DNA of 31,923 nt from an uncultured Ruminiclostridium sp. (GTDB lineage: Bacteria; Bacillota; Clostridia; DSM-8532), in contig CAYWXN010000001.1 in NCBI GenBank assembly GCA_964462075.1, positions 1 to 31,923 of the forward strand. Reading direction: 5' to 3'. Each line of letters starts with the position of its first letter. Position 1 is the first letter of the stretch. A program made the translations under genes and the position numbers. This document shows, in pieces, positions 8,426-18,991 of this stretch. The notes beneath the pieces were generated by a model that saw nothing but the letters and a program-made list of their open reading frames with translations, had not been told where the DNA came from and did no database searches.

Positions 8426-9562
8426 TCAATCCTTAAATTTATCTCTAACTTTTTCGAAAAATCCCTTTTTCTGTTCGAGCCCTTCATCACCACTGATTTC
8501 AGCAAATTGGCGCAATAGTTCTTTTTGCTTATTGGATAGCTTTGCGGGAACTTCCACATTCACACGAATATATTGATCTCCTCTGGAATTACTTCTCAGG
8601 CGCTTTATTCCCTTACCTTTTAACTTGAAAACAGTAGACGTCTGAGTTCCGTCAGGTATATTGTACTTTATAATACCGTCGATAGTGGGAATATCTATTT
8701 CAGCTCCTAAAGCTGCTTGCGTAAATGATATAGGTACATCACAAACAACGTCATAGCCTTCTCGTTTGAATATTTCATGGGGTTTGATATGTATTATCAC
8801 ATACAAATCGCCTGACTGACCGCCTCTTAGGCCTGACTCACCTTCACCCTTAAGTGATATGGTCTGACCACCATCAATACCGGCAGGAATATTTAGACTT
8901 ATTCGTGAATTCTTTGTTACTCTTGCTTTCCCATGACATGTTTCACAAGGCTGACTAATAATCTTTCCCTCACCATGGCAAGTATCGCAAGTTTTTACAT
9001 TAACAAACTGACCAAAGGGTGTTGCCTGAGTATAACGCACTTGCCCTGTTCCTTGGCACTGCTTGCAGTTTTCTGCTGAGGTTCCCGGTTTTGCACCGGT
9101 TCCGCTGCATGTGGCACAGGTCTGCATTTTGGTCACTAGTATCTCCTTAGTCACACCAAATGCGGCTTCCTCAAAAGTAATCTCCACTGAATACTGAATA
9201 TCCTTACCCCGGATAGGTCCGTTACGTCCGCTTTTTCTGCTTCTCCCGAAGCCTCCGCCCATAAAAGTGTCAAAAAGATCATCCAACCCGCCGAAGCCAA
9301 AACCGTCGAATCCGCTGAAACCGCCGCCCGTACCATCAAAGGCAGAATGCCCGAAACGGTCATAGCTGGAACGTTTTTGTTCATCACTTAATACACTGTA
9401 GGCTTCATTGATTTCTTTAAACTTTGCTTCAGCATCCTTATCTCCGGGATTTATATCCGGATGATACTGTTTAGCCAGTTTCCTATAAGCCTTCTTTATA
9501 TCTTCAGAGGATGCCTGCTTTGATATTCCAAGCACCTCATAATAATCTCTCTTATCAGCCAA
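8426..9562 (-). CDS. dnaJ: Chaperone DnaJ (TTG start, 378 aa)
   Basis: J-domain [14 protein letters not shown]-rich region, four CxxCxGxG-type repeats; GGAGGG RBS precedes TTG at 9562. Confidence 0.97.
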
Positions 9563-9634
9563 GTATAACCCTCCAAAATAGCATTTGATATGCAAACGCG
9601 AAACGGTAAATGTCATTCATACGTAGTTTCAATG

Positions 9635-9800
9635 CCTCGTCACTCGTTCGAAATCCGCAGTAGCTTGCTGCCAATCAGACTTCGCTTTCGCTCTTCTTCT
9701 TGGACAAGCCTTGCATGGGTGCTACTACTGTTTCCTTTCGTCGCTTCGCTCCTTGTAAACAGTGTAGCGACCTGCATCAGATTTCGGTAACGGGTGAGGT
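9635..9800 (-). ncRNA. Putative structured RNA with a closing stem and two long arms in the dnaK-dnaJ spacer; resembles, from memory, the Clostridiales-1-type repeat RNA
   Basis: Terminal stem CACCCGUU-ac-CGAAAUCUG / CGGAUUUCG-AACGAGUG; arm 1 9712-9776; arm 2 9663-9709; both arms capped by GAGCGAA(A)GCGA. Family assignment not verified. Confidence 0.6.
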
Positions 9801-9801
9801 C

Positions 9802-9812
9802 ATTATACCACA
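9802..9812 (-). promoter_or_regulatory. Extended -10 sigma-A-type promoter upstream of the structured RNA and dnaJ
   Basis: TGTG-G-TATAAT on the minus strand (TRTGnTATAAT consensus); no good -35 at 17 bp; the predicted start site coincides with the 5' end of the stem. Confidence 0.6.
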
Positions 9813-9890
9813 TATACCAGACAAATACCGTTCCGAATTAATATTAGCATAAGATTTTTTAAAATTATGGATTTAACCAACGCATTTTAT

Positions 9891-11831
<1,941 letters not shown>

Positions 11832-12435: not shown

Positions 12436-13491
12436 TCAGGGGTCATCCCCAAACATTCGTATTATTTCTCTATTCAGAAGTTCCCTGATGTATTTTATTG
12501 AAGAAACCACCTTACCATAGGTCATACGTGTCGGCCCTATGACGCCGATGGTTCCAATATCCTTACCCTCTCTGCCATAGACAGTGGTAATTATACTCAG
12601 ATCCTTCATTTCATCAATTTCATTTTCACTGCCTATTTTAAAGTCAAACTGCTGCTTTTTTGATGACTCAATGACTAATTGGTTTATTATTTCTTTTTCC
12701 TTAAGAAGATCCAAAACCTCACGTGCTTTTATTAAATCATTAAACTCGGGGTAGTTTAATATATTAGTTATTCCGTCCAAATAAACATCCGAAGTAGCAA
12801 TTTTTCGTACGCAGTCTTCTATTGCTTCAAAAATCGGTATTATCGCTTCGGTAGGGATATTAAAGTCTTTTTGCAGTTCCTTTACCATAGGCATAGAAAC
12901 CTGATCTATAGTTTTCCCTGATATAATCATGTTAAAAGCCTGATTAAGCTTTGCAATATGATTGTTATCAATTTTTTTCTCGTGGTTTATAAGCCTATTG
13001 TGAACAATTCCGCCTCCCGCAACTATTACCACCAGTATTCTTCTTTCGTCAACACCTAAGAGCTGAACGGACTTTATTACTGTTCTTGAAAGCTGTGGGG
13101 TCATTACGAATGCAGTGTATCCTGTTATATGGGATATAATTGTACCGGCTCTTTTAATAAGCTGATTAATTTCTTCGATCTTTTCGTCCATAGCCTCTCT
13201 GATAATGACCATTTCATTCTTGGCAAGACTATGAATCTGCATTAAATTTTCTACATAGAATCTATATCCTTTATCAGAGGGTATCCTTCCGGCAGATGTA
13301 TGGGGTTGGGTGATAAAACCTAACTCCTCTAAGTCAGCCATTTCGTTGCGTATAGTTGCAGAGCCAAGGCCTAACTCGTGTTTTCTGGCAATAGTCCTGG
13401 AACCAACAGGCTGAGCCGATTGGATATAATCATCTATTATGGATTTCAATATACTACGTTTTCTCTCATTAAGCTCATTTTCCAAGACCAT
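12436..13491 (-). CDS. hrcA: Heat-inducible transcription repressor HrcA (start at ATG 13491, 351 aa)
   Basis: QPVGSRTIA, SATIRNEMADLEELG, PHTSAGRIPSDKGYRFYV, GVIGPTRMTY; GGAGGTG RBS before 13491. The ORF-track start falls inside the CIRCE operator. Confidence 0.97.
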   Translation of the reverse strand: MVLENELNERKRSILKSIIDDYIQSAQPVGSRTIARKHELGLGSATIRNEMADLEELGFITQPHTSAGRIPSDKGYRFYVENLMQIHSLAKNEMVIIREAMDEKIEEINQLIKRAGTIISHITGYTAFVMTPQLSRTVIKSVQLLGVDERRILVVIVAGGGIVHNRLINHEKKIDNNHIAKLNQAFNMIISGKTIDQVSMPMVKELQKDFNIPTEAIIPIFEAIEDCVRKIATSDVYLDGITNILNYPEFNDLIKAREVLDLLKEKEIINQLVIESSKKQQFDFKIGSENEIDEMKDLSIITTVYGREGKDIGTIGVIGPTRMTYGKVVSSIKYIRELLNREIIRMFGDDP

Positions 13492-13513
13492 TACCTTCAC
13501 CTCCGCTCTATTG

Positions 13514-13540
13514 TTAGCACTCTCTGTCATTGAGTGCTAA
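13514..13540. promoter_or_regulatory. CIRCE element (HrcA operator)
   Basis: Exact consensus TTAGCACTC-N9-GAGTGCTAA (ttagcactc tctgtcatt gagtgctaa) upstream of hrcA. Confidence 0.98.
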
Positions 13541-18050: not shown

Positions 18051-18172
18051 TTGTAATGACATCACCCATTACCGAAATCAAAGAATTTTAGGTCTATATT
18101 TATTATGCAACATTTATAGGGTTTGTCAGTCATAAATATAAGCTAGGATGAAGCAGATCTATAAGGAGCAGT

Positions 18173-18991
18173 ATGGATTCCGACCTGATTTTGTCAATTT
18201 GTCTGGCAACACTTGCCGGTCTTTCAACCGGTATCGGAGGATTGGTCGCGGTACTGTTTAAAAGAACCAATACCAAGGTTTTATCCATAATGCTAGGCTT
18301 CTCAGCCGGTATTATGATTTATATTTCTTTCATCGAACTTTATCAGGAATCTCTGACAAATCTGTGCAATATACATGGTCCCGTCGGAGGAAAAATTCTT
18401 ACCGCTCTGGCATTTTTCTTTGGGATCACTCTTATGGCTTTAATAAATGAGTTTATACCCGAACCTAATCATCCCCATAGAGCAAGGAAAATTGAATCGG
18501 TACATAAAGCCAGCATCTACGACAGTAACAGGAATGCCGGCAAGCTTCTTAGAACCGGCATTTTCACTGCAATAGCGGTTACTCTTCATAATTTCCCCGA
18601 AGGTATCGCGTCCTATGTATCGACCATGAAAAGTTCGGCTCTGGGGGCATCAATTGCTTTAGCCATAGCAATTCATAATATACCTGAAGGAATCGCCGTA
18701 TCCATTCCTGTTTATTATGCCACCGGCAGCAGAAAAAAAGCCTTATTTGCTTCCCTTATTTCCGGTTTATCTGAGCCATTGGGCGCCATAATCGCCATGG
18801 CTGTTCTCGGACCGTTGATTACCGACACAATGTTCGGTATTATATTCGGTGCAGTTGCCGGAATAATGGTATATATCTCCCTTGACGAGCTATTGCCTAC
18901 ATCAAGAGAATACGGGGAACACAATCTTTCTATTCTGGGAATAATGTTAGGCATGGCACTTATGGCCATTAGCGTCATCTTTATTTTTTAA
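18173..18991 (+). CDS. zupT: ZIP-family metal transporter ZupT
   Basis: TLAGLSTGIGG, LGFSAGIMIYIS, AVTLHNFPEG, AIAIHNIPEGIAVSIP, SGLSEPLGA, DELLPTS; AAGGAG RBS. Confidence 0.92.
   Translation: MDSDLILSICLATLAGLSTGIGGLVAVLFKRTNTKVLSIMLGFSAGIMIYISFIELYQESLTNLCNIHGPVGGKILTALAFFFGITLMALINEFIPEPNHPHRARKIESVHKASIYDSNRNAGKLLRTGIFTAIAVTLHNFPEGIASYVSTMKSSALGASIALAIAIHNIPEGIAVSIPVYYATGSRKKALFASLISGLSEPLGAIIAMAVLGPLITDTMFGIIFGAVAGIMVYISLDELLPTSREYGEHNLSILGIMLGMALMAISVIFIF

Follow-up and report, generated by a model that had tools for sequence, protein, structure and literature searches.

Between dnaK and dnaJ, the branched fold is made up of two small repeats, nested one inside the other within the loop of a conserved native hairpin (P0), in the window studied here (the whole 31,923-nt stretch of DNA that was analyzed). 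We consider it probable that a portable promoter and a very stable RNA structure are delivered together here by nested palindromic repeats that are non-autonomous, of which the outer one most likely supplies a putative extended -10 promoter independent of CIRCE, along with a stable structured leader or RNA. The account is built on copy number, nesting, an empty site, covariation, and a link between the -10 box and the orientation of the neighboring gene.

Genes on the minus strand of the window run in the order hrcA, grpE, dnaK, dnaJ, prmA, rsmE, response regulator, and yicC, with a 328-nt spacer between dnaK and dnaJ and with dnaJ heading dnaJ-prmA-rsmE-response regulator from a TTG start that lies 73 nt beyond position 9635. 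The perfect CIRCE of this cluster overlaps the beginning of the longest hrcA ORF, so the genuine hrcA start is probably more downstream. The source genome (G000) is a metagenome-assembled genome (MAG), 79% complete in 424 contigs. Among named relatives, its DnaJ comes closest to that of an anaerobic-digester “Clostridiaceae” MAG (79% identity), followed by that of Pseudobacteroides cellulosolvens (62%), and DNA of the window was also found in bioreactor, wastewater, and digester metagenomes. The features of the locus, in window coordinates, are as follows.

13514-13540: perfect CIRCE
12436-13530, minus strand: longest hrcA ORF
9891-11744, minus strand: dnaK (Pfam HSP70, E 4.6e-259)
9841-9849, minus strand: second candidate extended -10, TGCTAATAT, conserved in G000, G001, G003, and G021
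9820-9835, minus strand: P0 left arm, CGGAACGGTATTTGTC, conserved with its partner in 21 same-genus genomes
9615-9819, minus strand: 205-nt insert in the P0 loop, outer plus inner modules, an imperfect palindrome
9802-9812, minus strand: extended -10 of the TRTGn-TATAAT type, TGTGGTATAAT, left edge of the outer module (direct reading)
9780-9796, minus strand: HP1 left arm, CACCCGTTACCGAAATC, with AC bulge
9657-9776, minus strand: inner module, TGCAGG...CTACTGC, 120 nt, in the HP1 loop
9712-9776, minus strand: inner arm 1
9662-9710, minus strand: inner arm 2
9641-9655, minus strand: HP1 right arm, GATTTCGAACGAGTG
9615-9640, minus strand: outer tail (..GGCATTGAAAC..GTATGAAT), pairing with the -10 region
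9599-9614, minus strand: P0 right arm, GACATTTACCGTTTCG, pairing with 9820-9835 in the minimum free energy (MFE) fold of 9590-9845
8426-9562, minus strand: dnaJ, TTG start at 9562 (Pfam DnaJ, DnaJ_CXXCXGXG, and DnaJ_C)

A sequence-only reading of this DNA had described a promoter-driven branched RNA of about 165 nt, and its sequence features are all present on direct reading: on the minus strand, TATAAT occupies 9807-9802 with TGTGG just ahead at 9812-9808, CACCCG begins at 9796, a basal stem pairs 9796-9778 with 9657-9641, and a three-way junction carries arm 1 (~9776-9712) and arm 2 (~9710-9662). The fold also beats chance, with an MFE of -59.4 kcal/mol for minus-strand 9635-9800 against a shuffle mean of -40.8 (z -5.25; 0/200 shuffles reach the native value) and -52.0 (z -2.62) for the plus strand of the same interval, and the wider region 9590-9845 folds into a rod that is nested throughout (-96.9 kcal/mol; z -6.9). 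Terminal inverted repeats are present, the entire insert being an imperfect palindrome. The single 165-nt unit has to be given up for two unrelated repeat modules, one nested in the other; the accompanying suggestion of a mobile structured repeat is borne out by multiple copies in the source genome and the genus and by an empty site in a relative. A 66-aa plus-strand ORF (9590-9790) was dismissed: it lies wholly within the repeat, whose units (109-121 nt) have lengths not divisible by three.

The native hairpin is the fixed part of this spacer. P0 arms (GAAACGGTATTTGYC / GRCATYTACCGTTTC) were found between dnaK and dnaJ in 21/21 genus genomes examined, with a constant U.U/U.Y internal mismatch and with covarying top and base pairs, and P0 may be an attenuator or processing site setting the dnaK:dnaJ ratio. 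A CGYTT-rich stretch follows the hairpin. At this orthologous site, presence and absence are polymorphic, the loop being empty or variously filled among the genus genomes.

G013 and G041 (= L020 MAG): P0 loop of 5-6 nt
G001, G005, and G024: P0 loop with a -10-like box only
G003: P0 loop with a truncated outer copy
G004: P0 loop with one short outer copy
G017: P0 loop with two tandem short copies
G021: P0 loop with the outer module and another insert
G000 (this genome): P0 loop with outer plus inner modules, 205 nt, 9615-9819

The empty site that had been proposed as a check in the dnaK-dnaJ spacer of relatives therefore exists, as a P0 loop of only 5-6 nt in two genomes. Since loop content differs between species, the promoter pointed out by the sequence-only reading falls within an inserted or variable segment. 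The right end of the outer insert merges into similar native sequence, and a clear target-site duplication was not seen. Separately, the TGCTAATAT box stands 5 nt upstream of P0 and would put the hairpin at the extreme 5' end of its transcript.

In the outer module, the TATAAT of the extended -10 is followed by five bases, then by the hairpin HP1 (17 bp, with a bulge), and then by a tail that ends in CATTGAAAC. HP1 comprises CACCCGTTACCGAAATC, a 3-nt loop, and GATTTCGAACGGGTG (8 bp, the AC bulge, and 7 bp) and is 94.8% paired across 38 copies, and an outer helix, AAYRAC/GTYRTT, shows covariation in 4/6 pairs and takes in the final three bases of the -10 box. The tail at 9615-9640 terminates in the degenerate beginning of a second unit, a tandem-unit junction known from arrays. 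A BLAST check of copy number in the source genome gave 48 matches that resolve into the two modules: the outer left arm occurs 21 times (≤2 mismatches), with many copies at contig ends, and inner-only and outer-only copies occur as well as one other full composite, on contig C15. These amount to ~20 outer and 8 inner loci with unit sizes of 70-205 nt, all inner copies being intergenic. Further afield, the outer 28-mer is present in 18/26 genus genomes at up to 53 copies (≤3 mismatches; 0 for the reversed control pattern), and the left part of the module in 5/8 genera of the family. Outer copies come in two subtypes, type A always with RTGn-TATAAT and type B with a degenerate box and a perfect outer helix; in the source genome, type A comprises six copies, namely this one, C6, C11, C29:7226, C180, and C301.

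Several outer copies have settings of their own. Contig C29 carries a 69-nt tandem array of outer units (C29:7212-7700, equal to L100:2213-2700) with at least five units, broken by a run of N, which precedes a P-II-like gene and a DUF1538 gene, and a type-B unit plus T-box leader (L100:1170-1448) lies just upstream of it. This array and the ATTGAAAC tail had raised the idea of a CRISPR, which was rejected, as the neighbors are the P-II and DUF1538 genes with no cas genes and the “spacers” are identical, making it a tandem repeat. Within the window, a second, truncated outer copy on the plus strand (18052-18090; TGTAATGACAT-CACCCATTACCGAAATC, left arm only) stands 110 nt ahead of a same-strand 272-aa ORF (18173-18991). 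Several type-A copies, e.g., the one before def-fmt, are followed by a shared leader (CATTAAGCAGGT.GGCCTGC…CATGCCG…; L102:2560-2672 on the minus strand, L116, L189, L191, and L210), which may be a further repeat module or a conserved 5' UTR element.

The inner module replaces no sequence and is placed exactly between the HP1 triloop and right arm, and this nesting recurs in a constant orientation in C15, G002, G009, and G013 (8 copies). Dozens of inner copies occur in relatives, and across G000 and relatives the module also lies within two other kinds of palindrome, forms head-to-tail arrays with periods of 109-121 nt, and stands alone directly 3' of terminator hairpins and their T-tracts (at least nine cases). 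Its orientation relative to flanking genes is weakly biased (16 sense and 8 antisense, counted between co-directional genes). These recurrent landing sites, hairpin loops and the T-tract after terminators, suggest a structure-directed mechanism.

The inner module also has other hosts. A short-arm form sits inside another repeated palindrome (L140:1502-1716, L142, L143, L144, and L003:701-915) that has 19-nt inverted ends (GCTGCTACGATTTAAAGCG / CGCTAAATCGTAGCAGGC) and several copies per genome, and a further host repeat (…GCCGTCCGTGGCACCGCGGCACTAGGGCATCCATGGC…) holds the module at a fixed point in L119, L120, L012, L137, and L121 (~1500-1770), with L126 looking like a recombinant of that repeat and HP1. 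An Rfam search of the other palindromes hosting the module gave no match. A single composite of outer and inner modules (G064:C353:5903-6051; 84% identity) was found in another genus of the family that is otherwise devoid of the inner module, and may reflect transfer or a binning error.

Covariation analysis, which had been proposed as a check on the fold, came out in its favor. Across 41 copies, 97% of cells in the inner two-arm fold are paired, and 14/27 pairs show compensatory changes as compared to 3.5 ± 1.4 in shuffles (0/500 as good) and 2-6 in slid controls. On this strand, G-U pairs outnumber A-C mismatches by ~33 to 9, so the fold is read on the dnaJ sense strand, as RNA or single-stranded DNA, and apart from that tally one inner G-U pair is kept in 37/41 copies. 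The fold is under selection, with the caveat that a mobile palindrome can show covariation from the matching of its ends as well as from hairpin formation.

Both arm tips share the form GA-GC-(GNA/GNRA)-GC-GA, and the source genome holds two L7Ae-family genes, two observations that, together with the strand-specific covariation, the conserved G-U pair, and RNA-library contigs that span the insert, would suit a dedicated sRNA gene, i.e., a promoter-driven ~165-200-nt trans-acting or protein-binding RNA with its tips (GA-GC-GNRA-GC-GA) bound by an L7Ae-type or other protein. We hold this to be improbable. A kink-turn (the L7Ae-binding structure) was tried for arm 2 and rejected, its register being 54.7% paired with 181/500 shuffles as good, as against 87.7% for a symmetric register (a 2x2 tandem G.A loop, then AGAC/GUCU) that makes a continuous helix with 8 compensatory cells, matched by 0/500 shuffles. 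Moreover, what would be the gene is a composite of two independently repeated modules that occur in many unrelated contexts and in both orientations to genes, close relatives are without it at the dnaK-dnaJ site, and a terminator is absent.

At the left edge of the outer module, TGTGG-TATAAT (9812-9802) has TGn directly before a TATAAT-like hexamer, as in extended -10 promoters of the sigma-A type, and the “TRTG” extended -10 is the Gram-positive form. A two-hexamer promoter scan of the minus strand found no site, because a -35 box is absent. The sequence-only reading had proposed that dnaJ is thereby given a promoter independent of CIRCE, and the comparative evidence agrees: the box is of a kind that could do so, CIRCE lies at 13514-13540, and copies with this box face genes. 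We tallied the source genome plus 30 loci of 18 genomes, each represented by its first unit, finding RTGnTATAAT in 25 outer copies (6 type-A copies here and 19 first-unit copies in relatives), and in 25/25 of these the next ORF lies on the same strand, 88-727 nt downstream, a count that overstates the statistics since kin genomes are not independent and some loci may be orthologous. For outer copies without TGn, the next ORF is on the same strand in 2 and on the opposite strand in 7. Internal units of most tandem arrays have TATTAAT or TATGAAT in place of TATAAT, the exception being the G007 array with TGnTATAAT in every unit. Such a link between box and orientation is what selection on a portable promoter would be expected to give. 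A portable promoter also accords with the constitutive promoter that precedes dnaJ in Bacillus subtilis (PMC2952846, citing Homuth 1997) and with mobile promoters as conceived for Correia, ERIC, and REPIN (PMC3575422).

Genes behind the type-A copies are unrelated (def-fmt, EPSP-synthase-type, TPP enzyme, Lrp, AraC, and dnaJ) and share no function, so they do not form a regulon, and that idea was rejected. The same lack of a common function weighs against a promoter-operator cassette, in which HP1 (CGAAATC-N3-GATTTCG) would be the DNA site of a dimeric repressor controlling all genes behind type-A copies. HP1 does offer dozens of copies of a near-perfect 7-3-7 palindrome at ~+8 to +25 of the putative promoter, with high sequence conservation and half-sites that change together. 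However, the half-sites are 120 nt apart here and in at least seven other copies, units stand in tandem arrays of 2-5, and the AC bulge and lower stem are asymmetrically conserved, and we judge an operator to be very improbable.

Two properties of the locus bear on how the -10 box is to be read under the portable-promoter account. First, its last three bases pair with the tail, so part of the box conservation may serve the palindrome and not RNA polymerase. Second, relatives without HP1 have a -10 box in the P0 loop, so a promoter at this locus may predate the repeat. From the comparative evidence we infer that the outer module serves as a portable extended -10 promoter of the sigma-A type, which would add HrcA/CIRCE-independent transcription of dnaJ-prmA-rsmE and so may alter dnaJ expression. 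Transcription from it would start at the base of HP1 or close by, giving the RNA a large, stable stem-junction as its 5' end. Transcripts started upstream, by dnaK read-through or from the TGCTAATAT box before P0, would carry the entire palindrome, as RNA-library contigs in part show, and there it is predicted to fold into a rod of ~-97 kcal/mol and may persist as a ~200-nt RNA.

Those contigs come from three studies and match the locus with 0 differences (9616-9826, 9638-9821, and 9705-9818), together spanning the insert including the -10 box and 6-14 nt beyond it (to 9818-9826); they are assembled sequences from which strand, level, and true ends are not readable and in which DNA carry-over is possible. 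A clean start near 9796, which the sequence-only reading had expected, does not fit mismatch-free contigs that extend upstream of the -10 box; with the box and up to 14 nt more included, some RNA starts upstream of 9796. A start near 9835, from the TGCTAATAT box, would fit the contig ends at 9818-9826 better than 9796. In one contig, 22 letters abut 9616, which we take to be the end of the Illumina universal adapter, and which imply a common fragment end there. Contig ends at the palindrome base are a weak hint of trimming or cleavage to a nuclease-resistant core, by analogy with REP and BOX (PMC3049150). In runs X16 and X18, the insert has a depth of 12-16 with little or no cover of the dnaK/dnaJ flanks, and X16 holds 0.94 of the insert's words vs 0.17 of those of the 1-kb stretch, which suggests an RNA far more abundant than the neighboring mRNAs, but these values are contig-based, and since contig depth and uncovered parts cannot rank expression we do not count them as evidence.

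The contigs' reach to 9818-9826, and the one ending at 9616 at the palindrome base with adapter abutting, would also be expected if the same nested repeats carried a TATAAT box that is inactive here, with RNA coming solely from upstream (dnaK read-through or the TGCTAATAT box) and the element acting only as RNA structure. It would then act as a processing site or as a block that resists nucleases, keeping the fates of dnaK and dnaJ mRNA apart (as for REP, ERIC, and BOX), or be neutral selfish DNA. We regard this as unlikely, if deserving of serious weight: the whole region is one rod (z -6.9), the TGCTAATAT box is conserved before P0, and the -10 box lies partly within a covarying helix. Yet TRTGn-TATAAT stands in all 25 gene-facing copies and is mostly lost otherwise, which is hard to explain without promoter selection, and most internal array units carry the altered hexamers. 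We thus favor the portable promoter joined to a stable RNA structure as the reading of the locus.

As to how such repeats spread, they are small, non-coding, and present in many dispersed copies, i.e., MITE-like. No longer element with the same ends, as a parent insertion sequence would be, was found in the source genome (79% complete MAG), no copies were found in the plasmids, phages, and viral contigs searched, and our searches for a transposase, target duplication, or other mobility mechanism found none. A REP/REPIN-RAYT system was rejected, given that Y1 (PF01797) is absent from the repeat-rich genomes G000, G013, G002, G004, and G011 and present in G015 and G010, both without repeats; RAYT/IS200 or a reverse transcriptase as partner was likewise rejected, since their distribution in the genus does not track the repeats. 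Y1_Tnp ORFs of 253-312 aa, longer than typical IS200/RAYT, occur at 1-5 copies per genome in G012, G023, G015, G016, G001, G017, and G009, and their presence does not track the repeats either. A bolder proposal, to which we attach rather little probability, is that the insert (205 nt) comes off as a discrete RNA, structured and abundant, and that the inner module represents a new class of selfish element targeting hairpin loops and the post-terminator T-tract without a recognizable transposase or reverse transcriptase; if so, it would spread perhaps via an RNA or single-strand DNA intermediate, with the GA-GC-GNRA-GC-GA tips as a protein handle.

Known RNA families offer no identity for the element. 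Rfam cmscan of the window at gathering scores returned 5S rRNA and one tRNA only, and Rfam 15 at E ≤ 10 over 9500-9950 returned two chance snoRNA-like matches outside the element and none on it. Hence, the resemblance to Clostridiales-1 that the sequence-only reading had suggested fails in the Infernal check. Apart from that suggestion, position in a heat-shock operon would speak for a described RNA family or for a riboswitch or RNA thermometer controlling dnaJ, which we find scarcely credible: the same element precedes unrelated genes, dnaJ leaders of close relatives are without it, and the ribosome-binding site at 9569-9574 is untouched by it. Like the element here, Clostridiales-1 is structured, repeated, and intergenic, occurs in Clostridia, and has no known function; it differs in that the element here matches no Rfam model at the same threshold.

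The element is a nested pair of interspersed repeats specific to the genus and family, and adds a further case to the structured intergenic repeats already known as BOX, ERIC/REP, and Correia; a single dedicated sRNA gene is unlikely. Correia elements (CREE/NEMIS, Neisseria) are likewise small non-coding palindromes with many intergenic copies, -10-type promoters at their ends, and transcript hairpins, and Correia transcripts are processed by RNase III. They differ in having no sequence relation to the repeats here, in defined 26-bp terminal repeats, in a TA target duplication (no duplication is seen here), in not being known to nest in hairpin loops, and in being restricted to Neisseria. Correia has been counted among mobile elements harboring promoters (PMC3575422). 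BOX elements of Streptococcus pneumoniae (boxA-boxB(n)-boxC) also have paired end modules that enclose a variable number of internal hairpins, and have stable RNA structures, expression in RNA-seq, and composite structures with leaders (PMC3049150). However, BOX is an unrelated family in an unrelated host, for which a conserved extended -10 is not known, and the inner module here also occurs solitary, in tandem arrays, and directly after terminators.

REP/BIME, REPIN, and ERIC of proteobacteria are similar as intergenic palindromes that often lie within operons. They can stabilize RNA or block its decay, and ERIC exists in short versions and in long ones that carry internal inserts. REP/REPIN has a RAYT (Y1) transposase partner; in our case neither G000 nor G013 has Y1_Tnp, and its occurrence among genomes is out of step with that of the repeats. 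The mobile-promoter concept has been applied to REPIN, ERIC, and Correia, and the putative mobile promoters of Matus-Garcia et al. 2012 (PMC3575422) resemble our case as highly similar upstream sequences before unrelated genes in one genome and related taxa. That survey, which took its sequences from -150 to -50 with respect to the start codon, did not give structure (PMC3575422), whereas here the -10 box, the attached hairpin, and the empty site are defined. Lastly, the heptacistronic dnaK operon of B. subtilis (Homuth 1997, via PMC2952846) shares the order hrcA-grpE-dnaK-dnaJ-prmA-rsmE, and there too the CIRCE promoter upstream is inducible by heat and dnaJ is preceded by a second promoter. 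That second promoter is constitutive and lies in ordinary unique DNA, unlike the candidate here, which is on a repeat inside a hairpin loop.

As a comparative signature of “mobile promoters”, the link between the extended -10 and gene-facing orientation (25/25) is a clean one, and it comes from an uncultured Clostridia lineage of anaerobic digesters. Such repeats break assembly, with many copies at contig ends, and can pass for sRNA genes. Via repeats that land in loops, a housekeeping operon could acquire, in a single step, both a second promoter independent of its regulator and a large RNA structure, with intermediate states preserved in related species as an empty loop, a -10 box only, one copy, two copies, and the nested composite.
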